DNA from: a virus
Taxonomy: Duplodnaviria; Caudoviricetes
Length of the DNA: 64,000 nucleotides
Direction: 5' to 3' (one strand)
IMG/VR virus record: IMGVR_UViG_3300029288_005873
Coordinates: 64,001-128,000 of that record
Shown here: piece after piece, positions 4,760-17,487 of the stretch
How the letters are laid out: the number at the start of each line of letters is the position of its first letter
Position numbering within the stretch: the stretch's first letter is position 1
Translations under genes and position numbers: made by a program
The notes under the pieces: model-generated
Database searches by the model: none
What the model was told of the DNA's origin: nothing
The model's input: only the letters and a program-made list of their open reading frames with translations

Positions 4760-5341
4760 TTAGGTTAACCTAAGAATACCAACAGGAGTTACCTGAAGGC
4801 TCTGCTTTATTCCATCCTTAAGAAATCTTTGGGCGGTTACGGCAATTTGTGCAGCTGTAAGGGCAAACATCGGAAGCTGTTCGCCGTCCTCACATGTTGC
4901 CTGTCCTTCTTTGCCCTCATCATCGAGAACAAAATATTCGTCCCAAACAACCCGACCAAATATTCCATCAGCAGATAGAGCTCCATGGAGGCATGGAATC
5001 TTGTGCTTCCGCACATAGTCTTGTATTGTCCTTCGAGCTTTTGCGTTATCTGTACAGTCTAGGACAAGTGCGGCACCGCCTAGGATGGCATCGGCGTTGT
5101 CTTCTGTAAGTCTATACGGAGTAGCATCAACCTTAGTCCCGAAAAGACCATTTAGAGCTTGCTGAATTGCCTTAGCCTTGTTTTGGCGCAAACCCATTTT
5201 GCTGTGGAATTGCGACTGGACGTTTTTAGTTTCAATATAATCATGGTCAACCACACGCGTAGAGTTTTTCCAGTTGCGCGCCAAAAGCGCCACATGTGAA
5301 CCGAGGGCGCCAACGCCAACAATAACTACCTTGCCTTCCAT
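4760..5341 (-). CDS. E1-like ThiF/MoeB adenylating enzyme (ubiquitin-like system 1)
   Basis: VGVGALGS Rossmann loop, DHDYIETKNVQSQ, DCTDN, candidate catalytic Cys in QATCEDG. Confidence 0.88.
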   Translation of the reverse strand: MEGKVVIVGVGALGSHVALLARNWKNSTRVVDHDYIETKNVQSQFHSKMGLRQNKAKAIQQALNGLFGTKVDATPYRLTEDNADAILGGAALVLDCTDNAKARRTIQDYVRKHKIPCLHGALSADGIFGRVVWDEYFVLDDEGKEGQATCEDGEQLPMFALTAAQIAVTAQRFLKDGIKQSLQVTPVGILRLT

Positions 5342-5618: not shown

Positions 5619-5993
5619 TTATTCCTCCTTTTGCGACAGCCTACGCAGATCGTGGATGTCGTCCGATTTTAAGAACGGTATTCTCCGGTAATCATGTTTT
5701 CCTGGACCGCTCCAAATAAATGTTGCCACTTCACTCATAGTCACAATAGGCCACACAAGCCTTCGTCCAAGTGCGGCTTCGCACGCCGCAAACGTCGTAA
5801 TATCAGTCCCAGATGGGCTTGCGGATCCATTCCAAGGATGCGTATGAGCAACTCCACCCAATCGTTCGCGATTTTCCCACAGGATATCCCACAGATTTCT
5901 AGAATCTGGTATCCAGCCTCCAGATCGACCTGGGGGGAGGTGCCAATGTATGACATTTCCATCCAAATCAAAAACTAAAGCTGTCTCAATCAT
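5619..5993 (-). CDS. JAB/MPN+ metallopeptidase (deubiquitinase-like)
   Basis: N-terminal Glu (MIET) and HTHP-x5-SPSGTD JAMM motif; start moved to ATG at 5993. Confidence 0.88.
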   Translation of the reverse strand: MIETALVFDLDGNVIHWHLPPGRSGGWIPDSRNLWDILWENRERLGGVAHTHPWNGSASPSGTDITTFAACEAALGRRLVWPIVTMSEVATFIWSGPGKHDYRRIPFLKSDDIHDLRRLSQKEE

Positions 5994-5994
5994 A

Positions 5995-6969
5995 TTAATC
6001 ATCCCAATCGTCATCGTCACGATCGCCATCTGCATGTCTGTAGACTACCAATTTACCTGTATTCATGGCCTCTCCCACAACAGCGGGAAGGCTTTCTAGC
6101 GTGAATCGTGCATCGCCTTTTACACCAGTGTGGTGATCGGTTAAACATATTCCTGAGTCGATTACACGTAATGTATCTTTGTCTACCACGCATTCAAGAC
6201 GACGGTTTCGGAATCTATACTGTACGACCATTTCCTTCTTATTACGCGATGGTCTAGCATCAAGTAGTTCGGCACCGCTTAGCCTTAGGGCAGCTTTTGC
6301 TGCCGCACCAAAATCCCTTTGTGCCAATGCGCGCCGTCCGGCTCCAGTTCCAGCATCTTTTAACGCTTGTCTGAACCGTTCTGCCTCAGCCCGTTTTTTC
6401 TCTTCTTCGAGTCTAATGCGTTCCATCTCTCGTTCGCGTTCCTCAGCAAGAATCCTCTGACGCGACACCCAACGAAAAGCTAAATCCAGAGCTGGGGTAA
6501 CTCCAATTACGTGGTCGACAGATCCTCTGCGATCCTGGTAAGCCATCTGTACAGCTGCCTCAGGACCTTGTGGAAACTCCTGCCTTACATATACCAGTCC
6601 TCCGCGTGTATTGGCGGCGACAGCTCTAGCAAATCTGTCAAGACCTGGCTCGACAACGAACACTGGAATGGTCTGGTCAACTAGTTTTTCTGGATCGGGA
6701 TCAATCCTTACATCATCAGGAATTAGCCTATCACCAACAACATATCCCTTGATAAGTTTATGACCATTCTCAAAATCTGGATTTGGATCAGCAGGACCCT
6801 CTAACTCTGCTTTACGACCTCCAGAGATTTTGAAAATGTACCATCCATGTTCATTGGGCAACTTTCCTTCAATCGTTAAAGTGCGCTCCCTATCATGAAT
6901 TTGTCTACCTCCGGTCCATGGAAGTGTTCTTTTGTCGCCTTCTAATGCCAATAAATCCTGCCAACCCAT
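5995..6969 (-). CDS. putative divergent E2-like protein
   Basis: Directly upstream of JAB-Ubl-E1; C-terminal DSGICL resembles the E2 GxICL catalytic-Cys motif; central coiled coil. Confidence 0.5.
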   Translation of the reverse strand: MGWQDLLALEGDKRTLPWTGGRQIHDRERTLTIEGKLPNEHGWYIFKISGGRKAELEGPADPNPDFENGHKLIKGYVVGDRLIPDDVRIDPDPEKLVDQTIPVFVVEPGLDRFARAVAANTRGGLVYVRQEFPQGPEAAVQMAYQDRRGSVDHVIGVTPALDLAFRWVSRQRILAEEREREMERIRLEEEKKRAEAERFRQALKDAGTGAGRRALAQRDFGAAAKAALRLSGAELLDARPSRNKKEMVVQYRFRNRRLECVVDKDTLRVIDSGICLTDHHTGVKGDARFTLESLPAVVGEAMNTGKLVVYRHADGDRDDDDWDD

Positions 6970-7254: not shown

Positions 7255-7278
7255 TTTTTCTCCTATGGATTTACACCC

Positions 7279-7345
7279 GAGTGCGACTCCGAATCGAACG
7301 AAGATAGTGGGTTCCCCCACTGTTTTGCCATTAAACTATCGCACA
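7279..7345 (-). ncRNA. tRNA-like RNA with a GGAA tetraloop in place of the anticodon loop
   Basis: GTGCGA/TCGCAC acceptor, TA-GTTT AATGGCA AAAC D-arm, AGTGGG-GGAA-CCCACT, CTTCG TTCGATT CGGAG T-arm. Confidence 0.7.
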
Positions 7346-7392
7346 CGTCCCGTTTTACTTGGTGGACAACGCCCAAATCATTGTTTCCTATT

Positions 7393-7680
7393 TCAACGTT
7401 CTATTACGAAAACCTTTCTACGACTTCGCCGTCCACTTCGAATAGAAACATTTGACTTAGGAACACCAAACCACTTTGCAACAAGCTTAATTGCCTCCTT
7501 GTTAGCTTTTCCATCCACGGCTGGAGATGAAACAAATACCTTCAGGCTACCATCATCCTGTTGTACAATCCCACTCCTTGAAGCTTTTGGAGAGACAAGG
7601 ACGCTAACCAGCTGTCCCACTTTTTTAACACAAGCGACAACCTTTTCTCCTTGTTTGATCACAAAACATGAATCAAACAT
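7393..7680 (-). CDS. DUF167/YggU (UPF0235) family protein
   Basis: V.PKASRS, PAVDGKANKE, GVPKSNVSI.SG..SR.K motifs. Confidence 0.85.
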   Translation of the reverse strand: MFDSCFVIKQGEKVVACVKKVGQLVSVLVSPKASRSGIVQQDDGSLKVFVSSPAVDGKANKEAIKLVAKWFGVPKSNVSIRSGRRSRRKVFVIER

Positions 7681-7939
7681 CGCCGCATCCCTTTCTCTTC
7701 TGTTTCTTACAAGCATTAATGAAGGCTGCCCTACCCTCGCCCATTGTATTTAGTAGGGCAGCCATTTTACCACCCCGCTTTACTGCTTCCTCCTTTGTTA
7801 TTTCCTTAATGTTGTTTCCTTTACACCAAGGACATACATCGACCCTGCTTGGATGTGTCCAATGAAGTTTTAGACAATCCTCACATAGGTATGGAGTTGT
7901 ACAAGGTTTATATCCCTCATCTCCCGTGCTCATGCCCAC
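7673..7939 (-). CDS. small zinc-ribbon protein
   Basis: CEDC...CPWC. Confidence 0.6.
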   Translation of the reverse strand: MGMSTGDEGYKPCTTPYLCEDCLKLHWTHPSRVDVCPWCKGNNIKEITKEEAVKRGGKMAALLNTMGEGRAAFINACKKQKRKGCGDV

Positions 7940-9807
7940 ACCGGCTTCTTCAGCAGATCAGTCTTGAGAACCTCCTCAACCAGGGTAACCTTTGTAGCCT
8001 TACGTACTTGAGCCACAATTGGCGTTGTAGCAATCAGATTACGAATCACACGAGTTACAGCATATGGGTCGGCAAAAATGCCTTCCTCAATCGCAAAACA
8101 GGGGATTCCAAGTCTTACTGCGGCATCCCTAACAATCGAGCCACTGCCATACTGCCCGCTTACAACCCTCAGAAGACCGAAAGCCACTGGGTTAATTCCC
8201 GATTCCTGGACAGCCACCAGTAACTGAGCTAATCCAGTATCGAGCTCATCGCCCACAAACAACATAATAGCATCCTCACCATCCTTCGGTCTACGATGAG
8301 CAAGAGCGCGAACACCTTGCGCATAACTTGTTCCACCACCAGCAAAATGTCCCCTAAAAGCCGCCTCAATACCCTTGGCAGATGGATGTTTGATCTGTAC
8401 CTCACCACCCATCGTATTGAAGACGCTAACATGTAGCCTTTCAAGTGGAAATCCAACAAGGAGCTTGGACAAGTACATCTTCGCCTGTTCTATCGCACCC
8501 TGCATAGATCCGGACTTATCCACAATGGCATAAATCCTCAGGTCCTTGGTCACCTCTTCCATAGCTTTCTTGGTAGCTGTGTCGGCAGCATCCTGTAGAG
8601 CTTCCCTTGTCTCCTGAGACTTAACGCGTCGCGCAACATTCGCGGCACGCTGATTCTCAGCAGTCTCAGTTGCCCTCTTCCAGCGGTCGGATACATCCTT
8701 CACCTTAAGAAGCCCAAGCTCTTCTAAAGTTGGTGTAAGGATAATCATATCCGTATTGGAAACGGACCCCGCTTCAATAGCTGCTGCCATAACAGCTCTG
8801 GTAAGACCTACTTCGGACGGAAGCAAACCAACAATACGCTTATAGTTTGGCTTTGTCTCCACAATGCGTTCACAGATTTGCCTTTCGGTCAGACCCTTCC
8901 AACTTTCCGCTTTCTTGACCTCAGCGCCGATGGCAATCTCCCTCCGACCATCTTCGGCCTGCTTCTGCTTCCAGCGCAGGATTTCGAAGAACTTCGGCGA
9001 AGAAGGCTTGTATCCCACCCTTCGAGCAAGCTCCATTACGGATGTACGAAAACCTGCCTTGACAAGACCCTCAAGCATCTTAGGGTTGTCTTCACGATAA
9101 CGCAGATACTTCTCAACTACTTTGGTATACCTACCCTTAGCTGGAGTGCGGGCTGATTTGCCAAAACCAAGTTCGCGATTAATCGCAGCCACGCCTGGAA
9201 GAGCAAGGATATCGCCAATCCTAAGAAGCAACTTCGGATCAATGTCATCCTTGGCTCGAATGAGACACATGGCCTCACCGACGTCCCTGTAGTCCTCATC
9301 ATGGAAAAGGACCTTGCCATCTTCCATAATAGGTTCTCCGCATCTGCCCTGAACAAGCATGAAAGCCGCAAGCACAACCTTCATATCGCGATGTTCCTTA
9401 GAAAATGCCCAGGATGCCCACCTTGCGGCAAACTCATTATCCAGTTTATAAACATCAGCAACCTGCCTGTACATCCAAGTCGCAACCTCCGGAAAAAGAC
9501 CAGGCTTTCTGTACTCAGCAACCTGCCTAGCGCCATCCATAATAGCATTGCCGTTTAGGATGCCAAGGCGAATCCTTCTTTGCTTGTTGCCGACCTTCTC
9601 AAGCCTGTAAACGACCTTCTGACCGCCTTCCTCCTTCCAAGTTACGGGTTCCCAACGCACGCCGGTCTTGGCGTTCCTGTCCACAAATAGAGCACCTGGT
9701 CTACCATGATATAGATGATCAAGATAACCTGTAAGAGTCTGAATAATTTTTTCAGCTGGACCGAGAGCTTCAATACGTTGCCTATCTGCTTGCTGATTAA
9801 CTACCAT
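7930..9807 (-). CDS. TROVE/Ro60-like helical domain plus vWA (MIDAS) protein
   Basis: C-terminal vWA (IVDKSGSM, GGTS, FVGDE) is clear; long helical N-domain has ELARRVGYKP and MIILTPTLEELGLL segments resembling TROVE motifs (TROVE call is inference). Confidence 0.6.
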   Translation of the reverse strand: MVVNQQADRQRIEALGPAEKIIQTLTGYLDHLYHGRPGALFVDRNAKTGVRWEPVTWKEEGGQKVVYRLEKVGNKQRRIRLGILNGNAIMDGARQVAEYRKPGLFPEVATWMYRQVADVYKLDNEFAARWASWAFSKEHRDMKVVLAAFMLVQGRCGEPIMEDGKVLFHDEDYRDVGEAMCLIRAKDDIDPKLLLRIGDILALPGVAAINRELGFGKSARTPAKGRYTKVVEKYLRYREDNPKMLEGLVKAGFRTSVMELARRVGYKPSSPKFFEILRWKQKQAEDGRREIAIGAEVKKAESWKGLTERQICERIVETKPNYKRIVGLLPSEVGLTRAVMAAAIEAGSVSNTDMIILTPTLEELGLLKVKDVSDRWKRATETAENQRAANVARRVKSQETREALQDAADTATKKAMEEVTKDLRIYAIVDKSGSMQGAIEQAKMYLSKLLVGFPLERLHVSVFNTMGGEVQIKHPSAKGIEAAFRGHFAGGGTSYAQGVRALAHRRPKDGEDAIMLFVGDELDTGLAQLLVAVQESGINPVAFGLLRVVSGQYGSGSIVRDAAVRLGIPCFAIEEGIFADPYAVTRVIRNLIATTPIVAQVRKATKVTLVEEVLKTDLLKKPVWA

Positions 9808-10519: not shown

Positions 10520-10672
10520 CGCCCCAGGAAGGACTCGAACCTTCAATTGCGTGTGAGCTTGTACCGGATGGCTCCTAAATCGTAGAACTCCTTAGGAGCC
10601 GAGAAGAGAAGCTAATTGCTTTTGTATCGCAGCTCCAAATGCTGTTGCCTTTTCCAATTTGGCTACTGACCC
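10520..10672 (-). ncRNA. giant-variable-arm tRNA-like RNA, copy A
   Basis: D-arm GCC AAATTGGAAAA GGC, CAGC-ATTTGGA-GCTG arm, ~85-nt insert, T-arm GAAGG TTCGAGT CCTTC; acceptor partly mismatched. Confidence 0.8.
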
Positions 10673-10682
10673 GAACTGATAA

Positions 10683-10710
10683 AACATATCCTCCTGAAGA
10701 AAATTGTCAA
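10683..10710 (-). promoter_or_regulatory. sigma70-like promoter for RNA copy A and the TROVE/Ubl block
   Basis: TTGACA-N16-TATGTT ending 10 nt upstream of the RNA 5' end. Confidence 0.6.
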
Positions 10711-11414
10711 GCCTCATTTTCGGGAAACAGTCCAAGCTTCACGTTCTGGAGGTTTTTCTGCTTAGCGTCGATCTCACGCTCCAATTTCCCTAAATTTCTT
10801 CAACTTCATTACTTAGCCTCACGAAGTTTATTTCCATGGTTTCCTTGTAGTTCATATCCGATTTCTTTTGCAGCAAATCGCAACGGATCCCAATGGTGAT
10901 GATTGTCACAATTGTCCCAAAGCGCTTGTATTCTTGCTGCTATAACTTCATTTGGCTCATCTATAAGTTCTACCGTAATGCGATATTTTCGCACTTCAAC
11001 TATGCCATTAAAACATGATGGGCAATCCTGTTTCATGTTTTTAATGGCATACTGATGAGGCTCAGAAAAAGTTTCCATTACAATAGGTTCAAAACGGATT
11101 GCTTTTCTCTTATCTTTACGCATCATATTTCCCTTACTGGTGAAGAAGACTAAGTGCTTGTTTTCGCTCAAGATTAAGAATTTGCCCTCCTTCAAAAAGG
11201 AGTATCCAACGAACTTTTCCCTTGTCCGAAAAACCAATCAAATCAGTACCGCACGCTACCTTCCAAAACCTCTCTCCAATATTCCGTCGTACTATTTTTC
11301 CTATTCCAGGAGTTATACCAATCCAATCTTTTCGACAATGGATTCCTTCACGCTTTGCAATGCGTACTTCCCAAGATTCCAACTTCATATTGTCCTCATA
11401 TCCTAAAAACTAGA

Positions 11415-11789
11415 TTATATCTTGCCAGACTTTATTTGTTTTGATCTCTCCATGGCCATATTGAATATATCAGTTCTATCATCATCTGACAAATTACGTA
11501 GAATCTCGAACACACTATTATCAATGCCATCAAATGTTGGATCAAGTTCCAAATTTGTCCCCTTTAGCCCACTGGAGCGCACAACAATAACATCTCCATC
11601 ATATATATTACAGGCACATAGGTTCATCCACCTAACCATTGGTCCACCATGTGCGTCTTTTTCCTCAAATACGACGCCCATAGTTCCGGGGATAACATCA
11701 GCAGCATATAATCTCTTGGCTGCCACGACAACATCTCCTCTCCTAAGTTTGCTTATATCCATTATTTTCCTTTCTTGTCGGGATAGCAA
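11415..11789 (-). CDS. hypothetical protein (true start probably MDISK)
   Basis: ORF on the dominant strand. Confidence 0.55.
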   Translation of the reverse strand: MLSRQERKIMDISKLRRGDVVVAAKRLYAADVIPGTMGVVFEEKDAHGGPMVRWMNLCACNIYDGDVIVVRSSGLKGTNLELDPTFDGIDNSVFEILRNLSDDDRTDIFNMAMERSKQIKSGKI

Positions 11790-11852
11790 GATTTGAACTT
11801 GCGACCTCTCGGGCCCAGGCCGAGCGCTCTAACCAGGCTGAGCTACATCCCG
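11778..11852 (-). tRNA. tRNA-Pro(TGG), C33 variant
   Basis: CGGGATG/TATCCCG-A; CTCGG CC-TGG-GC CCGAG; TTCAAAT T-loop. Confidence 0.88.
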
Positions 11853-12190
11853 CCCTTACAAAACTGACTATTCCAATGGACAACCTTCTTCAGCTAGTTG
11901 CCTATCACATTCGTATGAACAACACCACTCTCCATCATAGCATGCAGAACCAACAATACATCCCTTCGCAAATTTTGCCTCAATACCGCAGTTTGCGCAT
12001 CGACCCCCTGGGTCGTCTGTCGGCCATGACGAGCGCTGCATCCATCTCCAGAATGAACGCATCTCGTCCTCCATAACCTCCGCATAACATTCTGCCTCAA
12101 AAGCTTTCTGTTCCTCTGTATATTCATGTTCAAACTGAATGCTGGTATCGGAGATTTCCCTACACATGTTGCCCCCTTTCCGCGAAAACG

Positions 12191-12226
12191 TCCGCGGATT
12201 TTTTTCGCTGCATCAACGCGCGATCC
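12191..12226. repeat. 36-38 bp dispersed intergenic repeat, copy 1
   Basis: tccgcggatttttttcgctgcatcaacgcgcgatcc; near-identical copy at 39484-39521. Confidence 0.8.
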
Positions 12227-12417
12227 TTGTGACTGGGCTAGTTATGCTAGCTTTTATGTATGTTTCTCGGAACTGCGATGACGCAGCCCTGCTAACCAGG
12301 CCTTCCACATAAGTTCTATTGTTCTGTCATCCAGTGCGCAAAATGGCACTCCTGTTTGCGCATATAACCAACCGTCCATCCATGCTATAAAATCGCTGTC
12401 GTTTTTCCAATCATCCG

Positions 12418-12816
12418 TCATTTTTTATCCCAATACGATGCCAGCCACCACTTGGGCTCGCCGCAAAGATTTACACCATGATCTTCACAGATTTTCCTTA
12501 TTTTTAGTATAACTTTATAATCAATTTCCATATCATCAATTTCAACTACACCTTTTCTACCAGTTAATAATACCTTTGCCGCTAAGGCGTATATTGGACG
12601 ACCCATAGAATAATAATTTCCTACCACAAATGGAATTGGATTCCCACTTCTCCATTTCATCCTATAATGATACTGTGTATCTTCATCAATATTATCAGGT
12701 AATTTGTACCCATTAATTTTCATCCACCACTTATCAACATCCTCTCCCCAAGGGAGATTATAACCTTCCTCAAATAACCAACCATAAAACAAAACACCAT
12801 CAGCGGATATTCCCAT
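12418..12816 (-). CDS. hypothetical phage protein
   Basis: AAGGAG RBS; 132 aa. Confidence 0.65.
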   Translation of the reverse strand: MGISADGVLFYGWLFEEGYNLPWGEDVDKWWMKINGYKLPDNIDEDTQYHYRMKWRSGNPIPFVVGNYYSMGRPIYALAAKVLLTGRKGVVEIDDMEIDYKVILKIRKICEDHGVNLCGEPKWWLASYWDKK

Positions 12817-12832
12817 TACTTTTTCTCCTTTG

Positions 12833-12904
12833 TGGAGCCGTCCCGAGGTGCGCGGGAACTCTAAATTCTTCAGATTTATGTGCTACTGATTACACCACGG
12901 CTCC
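12833..12904 (-). tRNA. tRNA-Phe(GAA) with non-canonical T-loop
   Basis: GGAGCCG/CGGCTCC-A; TAAAT CT-GAA-GA ATTTA; T-arm TCCCG CGCACCT CGGGA. Confidence 0.78.
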
Positions 12905-12992
12905 TTATTGGTACTATAATTTTACACTATAGTACCACAGATAATAATCTGTAACAATTGCAACTATTCTATTGTCAACGAACATACTACAT

Positions 12993-13063
12993 TGACCCTA
13001 AGGGGAATTGAACCCCTGTTTCATGACTGAGAATCACGCGGCCTACCATTAGCCGATAGGGTC
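12993..13063 (-). tRNA. tRNA-Glu(CTC)
   Basis: GACCCTA/TAGGGTC-A; CGTGA TT-CTC-AG TCATG; TTCAATT T-loop. Confidence 0.9.
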
Positions 13064-13655
13064 TTTTGTTTCGTTTGGACTACTTTTCCAATCTGGCATT
13101 CTAGCTATAGCCGAATCTCTTGTAGGACGAAATGCCCATATCCAACTAGCTGGCCATTCTTCGTCCTCACAAATTATTGGCTTCTCCGAAAAAGCTGTAA
13201 TTACCACAAAAGCTTCTTTTGTGTCCACTAATGCAAAGAACACTTTGTTGATCGCAAGATCAACTATTACAATATTAGCGCGCTTTCCAATACTATGACG
13301 TGGATCGTTTTTATACCACATTTTATTTACCATGCTTTTCTTTGTCACATTCTTGTTCCGCTGCTGCGTGACAAATTGGACACCAGCCGCGAAAACATTT
13401 CACGGCATTCGAGGTGTATGGCCAACCGATACGACTAGCATCTCTCATAAGCTCCTCGCAAAGGTCTATCCTACCTTGCCAATAATCTGCCGATCTACCA
13501 ACTCGCTCACGATTGCGCTTCAAATTTTTGGCTTCCCAAAGCAAATACGCAAAGTGCTTAGTAAGACCTTTTGTATATGGATGGTTAAGCCAATCCACCG
13601 TTTGTTGCTTGTCTCCAAAAAATCTTGCGAAAATGCCCATCCTTTTTCTCCTTTA

Positions 13656-13728
13656 TTCCGGAGCTAGGATTCGAACCTAGATCAGCAACATCCAAGGTGT
13701 TGTGCCCTTGCCATTGGACCACTCCGGA
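13656..13728 (-). tRNA. tRNA-Gln(TTG), C33 variant
   Basis: TCCGGAG/CTCCGGA-A; CAACA CC-TTG-GA TGTTG; CTAGG TTCGAAT CCTAG. Confidence 0.88.
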
Positions 13729-13729
13729 G

Positions 13730-13856
13730 TGGTGCTGTCTCTCCAGCTGTCACGCCTCATACGTTGAGTTGCGCCTCCCATCAGTGTTCTCCAACACGTG
13801 AGATAACAGATTGCTGGCGTTCACAACCGAATGACCGCCCCAATTTGTTGGGCGTG
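13730..13856 (-). ncRNA. candidate structured ncRNA ending in hairpin-ACCA, abutting tRNA-Gln
   Basis: Stems GTCA/TGAC, CGCC/GGCG, TCTCA/TGGGA, GTGTT/AACAC, CTCA/TGAG, then GCTG-GAGAGA-CAGC-ACCA. Confidence 0.5.
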
Positions 13857-13969
13857 TACATTTCACTACAAAAAAGATTATCTACAACAGGTTTAACTAG
13901 TCTAGATATATGTCATTAAAATAATCAACCAAATGTAATAATTTTAACAATCATGTTATCAAAATTCTA

Positions 13970-14347
13970 TTATGTTACCTCGTATTTGGATCCAACACAT
14001 ACTGTCACTGATCGATTTGGGCATTCATGCGAAGGAATAAGGAATTTCCTACCATCGTCGGTGACTATAAATACCAGATCCACTTTTGTCGAATCAAAAA
14101 ATTTAACCGTATTTCCTGTTTTGTTTCCGCCCTTTGTACGCATTTCGACTTGATAACTACTGCCGCTCCTCTTGTATCGAGATGTACGAACTTGTACTTT
14201 CTTGAGAGTGCCGTCGTCTATTACTAAGTCATACTCTTGACTATCAGTAAGTGGTACGCATACAGTACAACCTTGTACAGAAAACCATCCGATAGCAATC
14301 CCGAGACCAACATCTCCCTGCTTTTTGCTATTTCTTTGTTTTAGCAT
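13970..14347 (-). CDS. PD-(D/E)XK homing endonuclease (group I intron-associated type, free-standing)
   Basis: KKQGDVG, PLTDSQEYDLVID, KKVQVRT motifs; located among tRNAs. Confidence 0.8.
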   Translation of the reverse strand: MLKQRNSKKQGDVGLGIAIGWFSVQGCTVCVPLTDSQEYDLVIDDGTLKKVQVRTSRYKRSGSSYQVEMRTKGGNKTGNTVKFFDSTKVDLVFIVTDDGRKFLIPSHECPNRSVTVCVGSKYEVT

Positions 14348-14537
14348 AACGTTATTAAATCGCAGCCTGTGCCCACAGATACACCATCAGTGCCGTAAAA
14401 GCAACAATCGCCAAAATACCAATACCGATACGCACATATGTGTACACTGGAGCCCTTAGCTGTGGAACTTCACAACATTCTTGTTCATTCTTCTTCTCAG
14501 CACATTTGCCAGAACATTCACACATTATCGCCACCTT

Positions 14538-15356
14538 TCAGATGTCAAGCCCAATATCATCGGGGGTTTTGATTCCGACAACTTTCTTTATACTCTCCTT
14601 CCACTTAACTTTTGGTGCTAGAACGGGATCTGACATAACTCTATCATAAAGTCTAATAATTGCTGCGTCGCTTTGAGATTCTTCCAAAGCAAGAATCATA
14701 TCACTCGTATGCTGATCCATATAACCACCGGCATTTATTAAACAGCGCTGACTTAGCTTATTAGCCTTCCCAATCCAAATTGCGTCAGTTACATATGGCA
14801 CTACAGTCTTAACTAGCCTAATAACATTATCGTGATTGGTATCCAGCATTGGCTCCATTGATACGCTGGTCTGCCAGCCGTTATCATGCGCCCACATGAG
14901 AGAATATAGTCTTTCAGCAAATGTGGGAGCCTTTGGCTCCCAAAAACGCAACGTACTAGGATCCATTGATCCAATTGTGAAACGAAATAAGATATTTCCC
15001 TTTACCCAAGGCATATCTCCACACAATTGTTTAATAATATACGGACTCGGCTTAGATACTACAAGAACTTTATTTCCAGCCTCCAAGAGCTTCCATAACA
15101 TCTCACGACAGTACTTAAAATTACTGGTCGTAATATCGTGAGATGTTGGAAACATTACTGTTCCTTGTCTCTTTCCAAACCTTTTTGCTATCTCCCTTGG
15201 TCGTTCTATTTCCCAACTCTTTGCTGTTTCCTTGCCAAACCTAATAGCTTGTGCCTTTGCATAACAATAAAGACAACCGTTGGTACAACCATCCATACAA
15301 TTTGCAGAACTAGCAGCCCATTCTCTTGTACCAGTTGGAGTTTTCTTACTACTCAT
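14538..15356 (-). CDS. radical SAM protein (spore photoproduct lyase-like superfamily)
   Basis: GCTNGCLYCYA CxxxCxxC; WEPKAP...ER; SVSMEPM. Confidence 0.8.
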   Translation of the reverse strand: MSSKKTPTGTREWAASSANCMDGCTNGCLYCYAKAQAIRFGKETAKSWEIERPREIAKRFGKRQGTVMFPTSHDITTSNFKYCREMLWKLLEAGNKVLVVSKPSPYIIKQLCGDMPWVKGNILFRFTIGSMDPSTLRFWEPKAPTFAERLYSLMWAHDNGWQTSVSMEPMLDTNHDNVIRLVKTVVPYVTDAIWIGKANKLSQRCLINAGGYMDQHTSDMILALEESQSDAAIIRLYDRVMSDPVLAPKVKWKESIKKVVGIKTPDDIGLDI

Positions 15357-15593
15357 CTATTTATCTTCTCTCAGTGAATTAGCTAAATTAGTCGCATATG
15401 TAAACAGTGGACCTTTACAAATTTGACGAGGATAAGGATACGTATTAATATTGCCAATTAGGTTTTCGATAACTCCAATTGGCAAATGATTTTGTATAAG
15501 ATCATATAGAAACAAAACCAACGCATCGTTACACCAAGATGTGTTTTCTTTGCACGACTTCTCTAACTCCCCAATTTTCTTCTTTTTTGCCAT
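15357..15593 (-). CDS. small helical protein, tandem paralog B
   Basis: LVLFLYDLIQNHL.IG.IE...KG.L..YA..LA..L; aligns with upstream ORF. Confidence 0.65.
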   Translation of the reverse strand: MAKKKKIGELEKSCKENTSWCNDALVLFLYDLIQNHLPIGVIENLIGNINTYPYPRQICKGPLFTYATNLANSLREDK

Positions 15594-15594
15594 A

Positions 15595-15862
15595 TTAGTC
15601 TCTTTTTCTCAACCGTTCTGCCAGGTCTTTGGCATAGTTGGCTAGCCAGCCTTTTTGTGAAACGGCTTGGCTGCTTTTCAACTTCGCCCATCATATCCTC
15701 AACCATGCCTATGGTCATATGGTCGCGCATAAGCTGATATAGGAAAGACACAAGCGGATCATCGGACCCAACATTACCACTTCGCTCACGCAACGCATCC
15801 ATACGATATGCTGTCTCCGTCAAAGAAACATGGCATTCCCTAAGCTCGTTATCTTGCGCCAT
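15595..15862 (-). CDS. small helical protein, tandem paralog A (+1 frameshift at 15652-15656)
   Basis: LVSFLYQLMRDHMTIGMVE; removing one A gives KGWLANYAKDLAERLRKRD* matching paralog B and a TAATATG junction. Confidence 0.65.
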
Positions 15863-15874
15863 TCTATTCCCCTT

Positions 15875-15910
15875 AAAAACAAAAACGCCCAAGCTTTTAA
15901 CTTGGGCGCC
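15875..15910 (-). terminator. intrinsic terminator of attenuator
   Basis: GCGCCCAAG-TTAAAAG-CTTGGGCGT-TTTTGTTTTT. Confidence 0.85.
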
Positions 15911-15938
15911 GGTTTTGCTGTTTATTTTCCGCTTTGGT

Positions 15939-16103
15939 TTATGCGCCCAAGTCTCCTATTAAGTTACTACCAAAGCGGACGTTTCCATTAAAAGAATAAG
16001 AACGCTCGGGCAGAATACTGGATGGCTGATTCCACACACACGTATCCAGTAGCCCATTTTGGGCTTTCTGGAAAGCTACTTTGTGTGTTAATGAACGCAT
16101 CAT
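15939..16103 (-). CDS. 54-aa leader peptide (uORF) of attenuator
   Basis: GGAGAT RBS; MMRSLTHK...IGDLGA*; last codons form the antiterminator strand. Confidence 0.65.
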   Translation of the reverse strand: MMRSLTHKVAFQKAQNGLLDTCVWNQPSSILPERSYSFNGNVRFGSNLIGDLGA

Positions 16104-16175
16104 TTTTTATATCTCCAAAAACAGCACCAGAGGGTTTAGTTGCTTTAATGGCATACTAGACCTAGTCTGGCGCGG

Positions 16176-16299
16176 CGGGGAGTTTCCGATTCGAACGGAA
16201 AGCTTGTGGGCTTCACAGGAGTTGGTCGTTTACGACCGAGAAATGAAGCAGGTTATTCTGGTTTGGCTCCAGTTGGCACCCCAGGTGCCAAAACTCCCC
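16176..16299 (-). ncRNA. giant-variable-arm tRNA-like RNA, copy D (most divergent)
   Basis: GGGGAGT/ACTCCCC acceptor; CTGG-AGCCAAA-CCAG; GCTTCA/TGAAGC with CTC-GGTCG TAAA CGACC; TTCCG TTCGAAT CGGAA. Confidence 0.75.
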
Positions 16300-16336
16300 A
16301 AAATTAGGAATGCGCGAGCGAGGAAGTCTTTTGTGT

Positions 16337-16408
16337 TAGCGGATGAGGGGATTGAACCCTCAACCTTCTGATTATAGGTCAGACGCTCTACCATTGAGCT
16401 GATTCGCT
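16337..16408 (-). tRNA. tRNA-Ile(TAT), C33 variant
   Basis: AGCGAAT/ATCCGCT (one mismatch); TCTGA CC-TAT-AA TCAGA; GAGGG TTCAATC CCCTC. Confidence 0.82.
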
Positions 16409-16437
16409 TGTGGACTTCTTTCCTTTGCGCATACCCG

Positions 16438-16574
16438 TCTGCCCGCTGGGATTCGAACCCAGATGATTTTCGCGTGTAGGTTCAGTATATTAGCTCCAAA
16501 GGAGCCGAGTAAAGGAACTAGATGCTTTTTGAAAGCTCCAAATGCTTTTGCCGCTCCAATTCGGCCACGGGCAG
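16438..16574 (-). ncRNA. giant-variable-arm tRNA-like RNA, copy B
   Basis: CTGCCCG/CGGGCAG-A; GCCG AATTGGAG CGGC; AAAGC-ATTTGGA-GCTTT; ~65-nt insert; CTGGG TTCGAAT CCCAG. Confidence 0.85.
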
Positions 16575-16645
16575 ATAAAAAACAAACTAGCCTAATCTAT
16601 CAATTTTACAGCATAATAATTAAACTAGTTAAGGAGGAACTTAGT

Positions 16646-17161
16646 ATGCTAATTTGTCGTAACTGTAACCAACCTTTTCCCTACAGCATTATCGTAAATG
16701 GGAAAGTGCGAAACCTACAACACAGAAAATTCTGTCTCAAATGCTCTACTTTCGGGAAGCATAATACCTGCGCAGATATAAAACAAAAACTCTCTGATCA
16801 GAAAATTTGCGCTAAGTATCACAATCTTTTTAGCAAAGACGATTTCTACAAACGGGCAAACGGTAGTCCTATTTCATATTGTAGAGAATGCGCCCGAAAA
16901 TGGTTCCTTGATTGGCAACATTCCATCAAAAAACAGTGCGTTGATTACAAAGGAGGCTGCTGTATCTTATGTGGATACAACAAATACTTCGGCTCGCTGG
17001 AATTTCACCACTTGGATAGGAGTCAAAAAGATTTCACCATATCAAGTCACAGAAGTCTTTCTTTCGACCAACTCAAAGAAGAACTAGATAAATGTATCCT
17101 TCTTTGTGCCAACTGTCATCGTGAGGTACATGGTGGAATTACTGAATTCCCAGCTGATTAG
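16646..17161 (+). mobile_element. HNH homing endonuclease, free-standing
   Basis: AAGGAGG RBS; CILCGY...LEFHH.D...KDF.IS...ELDKCILLCANCHREVH; only credible plus-strand gene. Confidence 0.85.
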
Positions 17162-17263
17162 TATTCCGTTTATGCTTACAAATTTCTACAGAACCAAACT
17201 ACTATTTTCACAAAACTACAGACTTTACATATTACAATTCGGCTACAATTTAATCTTCTTCCG

Positions 17264-17400
17264 TGCTCCCGGATGGACTCGAACCATCATTTGCTTGTTC
17301 GCTTGTTCCGGGTGACTCCTAAAAGTCGAGAGGTCAAGCTGGGTTGCTTTTTGTGATCAGATTTAATGTCTGTTGGCTTTTCCAGTTTGCCCACGGGAGC
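17264..17400 (-). ncRNA. giant-variable-arm tRNA-like RNA, copy C
   Basis: GCTCCCG/CGGGAGC-A; GGC AAACTGGAAAA GCC; CAGA-CATTAAA-TCTG; GCTTG/CAAGC insert; GATGG TTCGAGT CCATC. Confidence 0.85.
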
Positions 17401-17431
17401 AAGTTCTTCCTCTCAGAAGAACAATATTATC

Positions 17432-17487
17432 CAAAATCCAACATGTCGACTTTTTATGTCATTATCTAGACAACATGTTGGATTTTG
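17432..17487. promoter_or_regulatory. 15-bp perfect inverted repeat upstream of the ncRNA/tRNA cluster
   Basis: caaaatccaacatgt-N26-acatgttggattttg. Confidence 0.55.

Follow-up and report, generated by a model that had tools for sequence, protein, structure and literature searches.

A family of tRNA-shaped RNAs with a conserved variable-arm module in huge phages, and a Ro60-like candidate partner

The stretch of DNA analysed here, called the window below, comprises 64,000 nucleotides (nt) and corresponds to bases 64001-128000 of a 441,904-base-pair (bp) IMG/VR virus record, the genome of a huge phage. Its minus strand carries four loci, copies A to D, each specifying an RNA with the outline of a transfer RNA (tRNA) and a large additional domain in place of the variable arm (Table 1). 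On the same strand, 0.7 kb downstream of copy A, lies a gene for a 625-residue protein whose predicted fold resembles that of Ro60, the ring-shaped protein that partners Y RNAs. An initial annotation of the window had proposed that the four loci form one family of RNAs that do not decode. The family is an undescribed and widespread RNA class with a plausible putative protein partner.

Four loci and their variable-arm handle

The four loci are genuine members of one covarying RNA family, for which Rfam 15 has no entry. Copy C alone, with the structure drawn in the initial annotation (31 of 31 pairs check, -40.9 kcal/mol), was used for a first covariance model (R1), which finds copies A and D directly and copy B (16176-16299, 22.5 bits) once the filters are turned off. 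A second model, R2, was built from copies A, C and D, with B withheld from the building. The matches of both models to A, B and D are full length and have the ends first assigned to them. The proposal of a single four-member family on the minus strand is thus borne out, copy C alone being enough to find the other three. The minimum-energy fold of copy B by itself gives the entire architecture (z -4.69). MAFFT alignments misaligned B and the apical hairpin, and a model-based alignment was used instead.

None of the four loci matches an Rfam family at gathering scores, as had been expected, and none is called by ARAGORN in its default mode. With the Rfam tRNA model (RF00005), copy A alone scores (24.9 bits, E 0.091), which is below the cut-off of 29; by score or by call, then, the copies do not qualify as tRNAs. 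The intron mode of ARAGORN calls C and D, with models that are forced: the anticodon stems are mismatched and the variable loops are unstructured runs of 25 nt. Loci of this kind are missed or mis-called by tRNA finders. A Megablast search of a 7.4-kb stretch against GenBank phages gave no match, and full-text literature searches found no paper describing such an RNA family. The sequencing runs that match the stretch are DNA runs from landfill and wastewater metagenomes, with no RNA run among the matches listed; the single run that contains the stretch in full is a landfill metagenome, possibly the origin of the DNA.

The tRNA core is complete. It has a 7-bp acceptor stem, a D arm with GG, an anticodon-like arm (a 5-bp stem and a 7-nt loop in 31 of 39 members) and a T arm with GUUCGA, and copies A, C and D could form an A15:U48 pair. 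All elements of the cloverleaf core are therefore in place (7-bp acceptor, D arm with GG, 5-bp/7-nt anticodon arm, GUUCRANYC). An acceptor stem had been claimed for each copy; it is perfect over 7 bp in B, whereas in A two G-G mismatches leave five of the seven pairs. The closest relative of copy A (L100:1769) has a fully paired acceptor. A D arm of the Leu/Ser type had been claimed for A to C, which does not hold for B, whose D arm is a tight 6-bp hairpin. Copies A and D have D stems of 3 bp with long loops. The loops at the anticodon position are as first read, namely AUUUGGA in A and C, CAUUAAA in D and AGCCAAA in B.

The stretch from the anticodon stem to the T stem measures 84 nt in A, 56 in B, 69 in C and 68 in D, in agreement with the domain of 55-85 nt first placed at the variable-arm position, and its anatomy is conserved across the family. 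We refer to it as the handle. It consists, in order, of an A-rich linker, a clamp helix (h) of 4-8 bp, an internal loop, a hairpin (H), the return strand of the clamp and the sequence YACA(A/C)GC, which stands a few bases ahead of the T stem in nearly all members. The linker contains A(A/C)AGCA, and in many relatives a covarying 3-bp mini-hairpin is found there. The 5' strand of the internal loop ends in CUC in 38 of 39 members, and the 3' strand starts with A in 32 of them. The hairpin is free in sequence and variable, usually beginning with G; in one relative it contains a nested copy of the module. When a descriptor of the handle was run over the phage's own genome it recovered the four copies only, other matches being at the shuffled level of 4-11.

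Table 1. Positions of the RNA copies, their parts and neighbouring features in the window
Feature	Position	Strand	Remarks
RNA copy A	10520-10672	-	153 nt; R1 49.7 bits, E 8.6e-9 (64-kb window); R2 127.6 bits
RNA copy B	16176-16299	-	124 nt, most divergent; R2 47.5 bits, E 8.8e-8 (713 kb)
RNA copy C	16438-16574	-	137 nt; seed of R1; R2 135.5 bits
RNA copy D	17264-17400	-	137 nt; R1 41.1 bits, E 5.7e-7 (64-kb window); R2 131.4 bits
Copy A acceptor	10666-10672 with 10521-10527	-	two G-G mismatches, 5/7 pairs
Copy A D arm	10647-10663	-	arm map
Copy A anticodon-like arm	10629-10645	-	arm map; loop AUUUGGA
Copy A handle (variable-arm module)	10545-10628	-	column map of alignment A9
Copy A handle linker	10613-10628	-	A-rich, contains AAAAGCA
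Copy A helix h	10609-10612 with 10557-10560	-	GCUU/AAGC
Copy A handle loop strand CUCUUCUC	10601-10608	-	
Copy A hairpin H	10570-10600	-	
Copy A handle loop strand AUCCGGUAC	10561-10569	-	
Copy A handle UCACACGC and linker	10545-10556	-	
Copy A T arm	10528-10544	-	arm map
Copy B handle	16201-16256	-	perfect 7-bp acceptor; loop AGCCAAA
Copy B T arm	16184-16200	-	
Copy C handle	16463-16531	-	h GUUC/GAAC, CUUUACUC, H 16492-16506, AAUAUACU, CUACACGC; loop AUUUGGA
Copy D handle	17289-17356	-	loop CAUUAAA, A at position 33
Promoter-like site, copy A	10683-10710	-	TTGACA, 16 nt, TATGTT; ends 11 nt upstream of copy A; consensus match only
Promoter-like site, copy C	16603-16632	-	29 nt upstream of copy C; consensus match only
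Promoter-like site, copy D	17421-17449	-	21 nt upstream of copy D; consensus match only
Ro60-like protein	7930-9807	-	625 residues; N-terminal beta domain, helical-repeat ring, C-terminal vWA; proposed partner
Open reading frame	7673-7939	-	
DUF167/YggU gene	7393-7716	-	
Small tRNA-like RNA	7275-7346	-	72 nt
Prok-JAB gene	5619-6035	-	
ThiF/E1-like gene, short	4760-5341	-	
tRNA-Pro(UGG)	11777-11852	-	C33
tRNA-Gln(UUG)	13656-13728	-	C33
tRNA-Ile(UAU)	16337-16408	-	C33
PD-(D/E)XK endonuclease	13970-14347	-	PF11645, E 4.5e-17
Radical-SAM-like protein	14538-15356	-	
HNH homing endonuclease	16463-17161	+	phrog_2255, E 7e-40, residues 63-228

The variation of H in sequence and length, and the nested copy within it, would suit an expression scaffold, in which the tRNA body recruits RNase P and 3' processing and frees the apical hairpin as a small RNA, as in the tRNA-microRNA transcripts of herpesviruses. 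But conservation is seen in the clamp, its internal loop and the strands on either side and not in the hairpin, which covaries without conserved sequence, and no processing signal was identified. We consider a scaffold of this sort highly improbable.

Relatives, permuted forms and the anticodon-like loop

Relatives of the window copies were sought with a DNA pattern (CTCG, then ACAMGC, then GGTTCGARTCC), which at least 117 viral stretches match; 80 loci were returned, and some 22 of these with cis-form members were confirmed by the model. The neighbouring 625-residue protein led to five related huge-phage contigs, all five with matches to the RNA model. There are about 40 non-identical relatives across more than 20 huge-phage contigs, so that covariance models, proposed earlier as a check, recover not only the window copies but also relatives in other huge phages. 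Among 80 pattern-matching loci from cellular genomes, 79 hold ordinary tRNAs and one holds family members, on a 16.8-kb contig of a metagenome-assembled genome that is perhaps mis-binned phage DNA. The family is therefore essentially viral.

Pairing was assessed in an alignment of 42 distinct members (A9). The alignment is fitted to the model, which favours the structure, yet the margin over controls with slid partners is still large: 96.1% of the cells form standard pairs, compared with 36-52% when the partners are slid and 60% when they are shuffled. Changes on both sides are seen in 30 of the 31 pairs, and the covariation score is 0.82, against 0.18 for shuffled partners and 0.09-0.19 for partners slid by one to three columns. 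All six helices covary, the four of the core as well as the two of the variable arm (93.6% paired in helix h and 95.7% in hairpin H). Covariation of the outer variable-arm helix had been read from the four window copies, for which the evidence is weaker than claimed, as the helix changes in C alone (GUUC/GAAC versus a GCUU/AAGC core); it is the family-wide covariation that carries the case.

Some members are circularly permuted. They occur in G002, G003, G004, G030, L278 and other records (G and L numbers are our labels for related records). The permuted units begin with the 3' strand of the handle, YACAAGC, the T arm, the 3' strand of the acceptor and a loop of 6-7 nt, and continue with the 5' strand of the acceptor, the D arm, the anticodon-like arm, the A-rich linker and the 5' strand of the handle. 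In G002 the acceptor pairs are perfect solely in the permuted register, and neighbouring units differ by a compensatory change in the terminal stem (GAUC.../...GAUC versus GGUC.../...GACC). The window copies have the RNA ends in the acceptor stem and a capped handle, whereas in the permuted relatives the acceptor is closed and the handle stem contains the ends. A scan of the phage's own genome for permuted copies found the acceptor-open form only. In G003 a complete tRNA-like gene lies inside the clamp, in the order GAAGCGACC, GGCU, CACAA, tRNA, UCAAAC, AGCC, UUUCAACUC, GGUCGCUUC; the clamp module is therefore the constant part and the tRNA-like body the cargo. Because the permuted members belong to the same phage clade, the acceptor-open and permuted forms can be regarded as one continuum.

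The arm order of the permuted units is that of YrlA, the tRNA-like Y RNA of bacteria, and they match positions 29-81, in the tRNA-like part, of its Rfam model, RF02553, with 22-28 bits (22.8-28.1; cut-off 69). The topology of YrlA, with paired ends in the stem of the Ro60 site and a closed acceptor, is found in the permuted relatives of the five records named above and not in the window copies, whose acceptors are open and whose handles are capped. The initial annotation had set the family apart from YrlA by the different, permuted topology of the latter. That distinction stands for the four window copies but not for the clade, which holds members in YrlA order that partly match RF02553.

Can the RNAs decode? 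U33, present in 226 of 242 ordinary tRNAs of the same loci, is found in 13 of 31 family loops, and a purine occupies position 33 in 15 of 31 loops against 1 of the 242 (p 2.5e-15). Position 37 is a purine in 30 of the 31 loops and position 38 is A in 29. Of the two near-invariant features of tRNA loops considered, the purine at 37 is thus kept, and U33 is present in a minority of the loops. In the window, position 33 is U in A and C, G in B and A in D. The anticodon arm is absent in three members, and six have loops of 5, 6 or 8 nt. The triplets are those of real anticodons: UUG twice, UUA and CCA in the window, and most commonly GUA elsewhere. From their sequences, the family RNAs are probably not ordinary decoders, and the view that they are tRNA scaffolds and not decoding tRNAs is upheld by the atypical position 33 and the armless members.

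Besides a transfer-messenger RNA (tmRNA), the phage genome includes 23 ordinary tRNA genes. Six of the 23 tRNAs have C33, compared with about 6% in related phage loci. Among the six are the high-scoring tRNAs for Pro-UGG, Gln-UUG and Ile-UAU, in which C replaces U (Table 1).

If the four RNAs were working tRNAs, they would be charged and decode Gln codons (UUG, twice), UAA (UUA) and Trp codons (CCA), the arm regulating or protecting them. Their core is complete, A and C have U33, R37 and A38, and tRNAs for Ser, Tyr, Trp and other amino acids were undetected in the phage. Masuda and coworkers are said to have found, in 2017, that a tRNA with an aptamer in its variable loop is active in translation. 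We nevertheless think decoding very unlikely: B, D and about half of the family have a purine at position 33, as does a single one of the 242 ordinary tRNAs, some members lack the anticodon arm or have loops of aberrant size, and the permuted members could not be charged without processing. The phage, moreover, already possesses an ordinary tRNA-Gln(UUG). The open reading frames (ORFs), as listed and translated under table 11, give coherent proteins, and there is thus no sign that a suppressor of UAA is needed.

The permuted members, together with the intron-mode calls of C and D and the real intron-bearing tRNA candidates present elsewhere in the genome, could also mean that the loci are interrupted or permuted precursors, the module being an intron or half-joining motif that is removed to yield ordinary tRNAs. 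The ARAGORN models are defective as described, and no Rfam intron or ribozyme family matches the loci. The module has no recognisable intron, its borders being conserved as those of a covarying arm and not as splice sites, and its removal does not leave an ordinary tRNA, the loops still being without U33. No gene for an RtcB ligase was found in the genome. Such precursors strike us as scarcely credible.

The Ro60-like protein and the case for Y-like RNAs

Searches of Pfam with the 625-residue protein (hmmscan) give weak vWA matches only. Its structure was modelled with 35 homologues (predicted local distance difference test score, pLDDT, 80), and Foldseek places Ro60/TROVE entries at ranks 1-12, with 518-578 aligned columns and E values of 1.4e-7 to 5e-5; among them are Xenopus Ro, Deinococcus Rsr and the Ro60 of Thermus phage phiLo. 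In a second structure comparison with the full-length model, the best 50 matches were vWA domains only, with no Ro60 among them. Residues 1-420 were therefore folded by themselves and compared, by a method other than Foldseek, with 48,161 representative chains; Ro60 proteins take the first three ranks (9l5y_B, Z 9.0; 2nvo_A, 8.7; 1yvp_A, 7.9), and the next-best chain has a Z of 6.5. The C-terminal vWA domain (Z about 15) follows the ring, as it does in Ro60, and an additional beta domain is formed by residues 38-100. As modelled, the protein has the architecture of Ro60 plus an extra beta domain and is very divergent. Homologues are numerous: a word-index search found 1983 proteins at E up to 0.001, and a profile search found 523 clusters (50% identity) at the same threshold and 112 at 1e-30, many of them fragments.

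Several aspects of gene order tie the RNA to this gene. YrlA genes are expected on the same strand as a Ro60 orthologue and within about 4 kb of it, a range into which copy A falls. A run on one strand comprises copy A, two small ORFs, the Ro60-like gene, the ORF that follows, the DUF167 gene, a tRNA-like RNA, and the JAB and ThiF genes. The promoter-like site ahead of copy A, judged by its sequence, would head a transcript that runs from copy A through the two small ORFs to the Ro60-like gene. Copy C, tRNA-Ile(UAU) and copy B likewise form one run after the site ahead of copy C.

The two also occur together in other records. The RNA is present in all five protein-bearing relatives. Seventeen of 20 RNA-positive records have the protein, and the other three are fragments, 5-31% complete, one of them with a weak match of short length (E 3e-7). 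The protein is present in five, and missing from 19, of the 24 records that match the DNA pattern and are negative with the model (p 4.8e-5 for the contrast with 17 of 20); in all but one of the five, 0.3-3 kb separate the pattern match from the gene. The co-occurrence with the TROVE-vWA gene that was proposed as a check is thus observed. Most records have the RNA within 5 kb of the gene; for G006, G009 and G013 the distance is no more than 0.5 kb.

We favour, with moderate confidence, the view that the four loci specify non-decoding, tRNA-derived, Y-like partner RNAs of the phage's Ro60-like TROVE-vWA protein, to which they are predicted to bind. The initial annotation had offered three options: an analogue of Y RNA for the TROVE-like protein, a decoy for host anticodon nucleases, and a ribosome-binding rescue RNA. 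The first is the best supported, with Ro60 proteins being the closest solved folds and the RNA tracking the gene across lineages. For ribosome rescue nothing pointing to such a role was found, and the phage has its separate tmRNA.

It should be noted that a number of observations weigh against this view. On the side of the protein, the Pfam TROVE model (PF05731) has no match in the entire phage genome at E up to 1, although control genomes score, and neither a PDB sequence search nor a search with a profile of 35 sequences brings up Ro60. The Foldseek matches have low template-modelling (TM) scores (0.23-0.46), Z values of 8-9 are modest for a helical repeat, and the likeness to Ro60 predicted by the model is at the level of the fold only. 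On the side of the RNA, RF02553 has no match in the window between 10300 and 17700 at E up to 10, and the motif GNCGAA(N0-1)G is absent from A, B and D and occurs in C inside the D arm only. The phage is relaxed at position 33, as its ordinary tRNAs illustrate, which makes the loop argument by itself weak for copies A and C with their U33. As for linkage, B, C and D lie 6.4-7.6 kb upstream of the gene, on the same strand, and A, the nearest copy, is the one with a flawed acceptor stem. The detected RNAs are 15-232 kb from the gene in G010, G011, G016, G021, G023 and G025, and there is no RNA within 5 kb of it in L284, L285 and G035. Finally, the cases of co-occurrence are not independent, because much of the evidence comes from one clade with a conserved gene order and from a tRNA-rich region.

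Since the bulk came from one clade, divergent protein lineages were also checked. In L277 (protein P0157), three cis copies on the same strand begin 256 nt downstream of the gene, and in L278 (protein P0161) a permuted chain on the same strand ends less than 250 nt upstream of it. Handle RNAs on the same strand lie directly upstream of the gene in L280 and L281, the lineages of proteins P0246 and P0253 (profile E about 1e-25), with one copy in L280 and several UUUACAAGCA units in the 950-nt gap in L281. Two permuted units are found 135 and 330 nt downstream of the gene, on the same strand, in G030 (33% identity). In L281 the neighbours are DUF5662 and an RlaP RNA-repair gene, and ThiF is not among the called genes of the locus; the RNA therefore follows the Ro60-like gene and not the ubiquitin-like genes. 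In L283-L286 and G035, no RNA is seen in the available DNA, two of these contigs being too short to judge.

Among tRNAs, the nearest likeness is to class II (bacterial Leu, Ser and Tyr), which shares the order of arms and has a further arm inserted after the anticodon arm and ahead of the T arm. Known variable arms of this class are about 13-21 nt long, whereas those of the family measure 56-84 nt and have conserved flanking single strands and an internal loop; in addition, position 33 is unconserved and the Rfam tRNA score is below threshold or nil. As the Tyr-like GUA is the commonest look-alike triplet, a class II tRNA would be the likely ancestor.

Among Y RNAs, YrlA (RF02553; Chen et al., 2014, PMC4201824) resembles the family in its tRNA-derived D and T arms and acceptor-like stem, in being encoded near a Ro60-type gene on the same strand, and in its occurrence in phages. 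In M. smegmatis, whose YrlA has a 7-bp acceptor, RNase P cleaves this RNA in vivo and CCA is added to it (PMC4201824); opened in this way, it corresponds to the acceptor-open form and is like the window copies. The latter differ in having their ends in the acceptor stem, the gene order of an ordinary tRNA and a closed anticodon-like hairpin. The presumed protein-binding stem leaves at the variable-arm position in the window copies, whereas in YrlA it leaves at the position of the anticodon stem. The missing GNCGAA, the missing RF02553 match and a protein partner not seen by Pfam TROVE are further differences.

Two phage systems bear on the comparison. In Thermus phage phiLo, Ro60 binds the phage-encoded Y-like RNAs Yrl1 and Yrl2 and the host PNPase (PMC12135203; PDB 9KOP, 9L5Y). 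Both phages have a Ro60-type ring and small RNAs adjoining it, the binding of the partner being a prediction in the present case, and a chain from this system (9l5y_B) is the best structural match of residues 1-420. In contrast, Yrl1 and Yrl2 have been reported to be Y RNAs of the classical stem-bulge-stem kind, with a CGAA motif, and are not tRNA-shaped, and the phiLo protein, of about 460 residues, has no counterpart of residues 38-100, judging by the aligned ranges. In phage Bas63, a Ro60-like protein, gp130, is encoded directly beside a run of tRNA-type genes, some of which the authors guess to be Y RNAs (PhageMaP preprint, PMC11482910). The gp130 protein has a tested role, counteracting the ppl defence, and was reported to be active after transfer into T7 or when expressed from a plasmid; the study neither defined nor tested an RNA family (PMC11482910).

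How might Y-like RNAs of this shape work? With its tRNA core, the RNA would be a substrate for RNase P, for 3' trimming and for CCA addition, and would be excised and stabilised in this way; the phage has its own gene for an enzyme of the CCA-adding type. The Ro60-like ring would dock on the constant clamp module, and the tRNA-like body, with its anticodon look-alike loop, could be a variable effector or bait end. In known particles of Ro60 and Y RNA, the second module of the RNA tethers the nuclease PNPase or gates the ring (PMC4201824). The particle of ring and RNA may act in RNA surveillance or in counter-defence during infection.

A more specific scheme, tentative and rather doubtful, is that these are CCA-tailed Y RNAs of tRNA topology whose anticodon-like loops, disabled for decoding by the purine at position 33, bait tRNA-targeting nucleases or tRNA-binding factors of the host; with the handle docked on the ring, the particle would capture, block or destroy the defence factor or its RNA products. 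The copies would then present different anticodon mimics, UUG, UUA and CCA in this phage and most often GUA elsewhere.

The same factors could be soaked up or blocked by the RNAs as stand-alone decoys that mimic particular tRNAs of the host or the phage, without the Ro60-like protein, the arm serving to stabilise the RNA or to hinder its entry into the ribosome. That the loops are anticodon-like from position 34 to 38, with real anticodon triplets and, in nearly half of the members, a purine at position 33, agrees with this possibility, as does UUG-G-A in copies A and C, which is also found in the phage's tRNA-Gln (loop CCUUGGA). The six ordinary tRNAs with C33 would fit loop changes that evade nucleases, a theme for which PMC11482910 cites van den Berg et al. 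(2023). Decoys without the protein leave three things unexplained, however: why the variable-arm module is invariant in sequence and shape, why it survives in permuted members and in those without an anticodon arm, and why the RNAs of divergent lineages adjoin the Ro60-like gene on its own strand. They are in our opinion unlikely.

Ro60 and Y RNAs have been described in animals and bacteria as well as in a small number of phages. If the Y-like assignment is true, the family is a large phage-borne branch of Y RNAs, present in tens of huge-phage genomes. The branch combines a complete likeness to tRNA with a protein handle relocated to the variable arm, and it includes both circular permutations, a natural experiment from which the important parts of a Y RNA could be read. 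The handle would be a new RNA motif and a candidate for binding of the Ro60 type. The family also opens a way to learn what one of the best-conserved genes of these phages does.

Neighbouring genes and other RNAs

Inside the Ro60-like operon, in the interval that separates the DUF167 gene from the following ORF, the window has a small tRNA-like RNA (Table 1) with a 7-bp acceptor, D and T arms, no anticodon and no handle. At the position of the anticodon arm it has a 6-bp hairpin with a GGAA tetraloop. The DUF167/YggU, Prok-JAB and short ThiF/E1-like genes lie downstream of the Ro60-like gene. ThiF follows the Ro60-like gene also in the distant lineages L278, L284 and L285, an arrangement suggestive of a ubiquitin-like cassette that is conserved.

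Between copies C and D, the opposite strand has an ORF for an HNH homing endonuclease. As listed, the ORF overlaps copy C, and its real start is probably near 16645. A PD-(D/E)XK endonuclease and a radical-SAM-like protein are encoded among the tRNA genes between A and B.

In the relative G002 (contig 3300018065_000011; L008 1789-1881), a small bacterial-type RNA of the signal recognition particle (SRP; RF00169, 57.7 bits, cut-off 40) comes right after the last permuted tRNA-like unit. The run YYYYCUC followed by G was considered as the mark of a ribozyme or an RNase P leader and was rejected: no ribozyme family matches, and the U-rich run of G002 lies inside the match to the SRP model.

Two further observations come from the rest of the phage genome. 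About 95 kb beyond the window, directly after tRNA-Arg(UCU), there is a 128-nt tRNA-like RNA (G000:C1:222916-223043, minus strand) with a perfect acceptor and T arm, a D-like segment and four small central hairpins, an architecture unlike that of the family. In its intron mode, ARAGORN finds a tRNA-Asn(GUU) with a 246-nt insert at 207286-207605 and a tRNA-Met(CAU) with a 265-nt insert at 217738-218080, both on the minus strand; the two inserts are possible group I introns.

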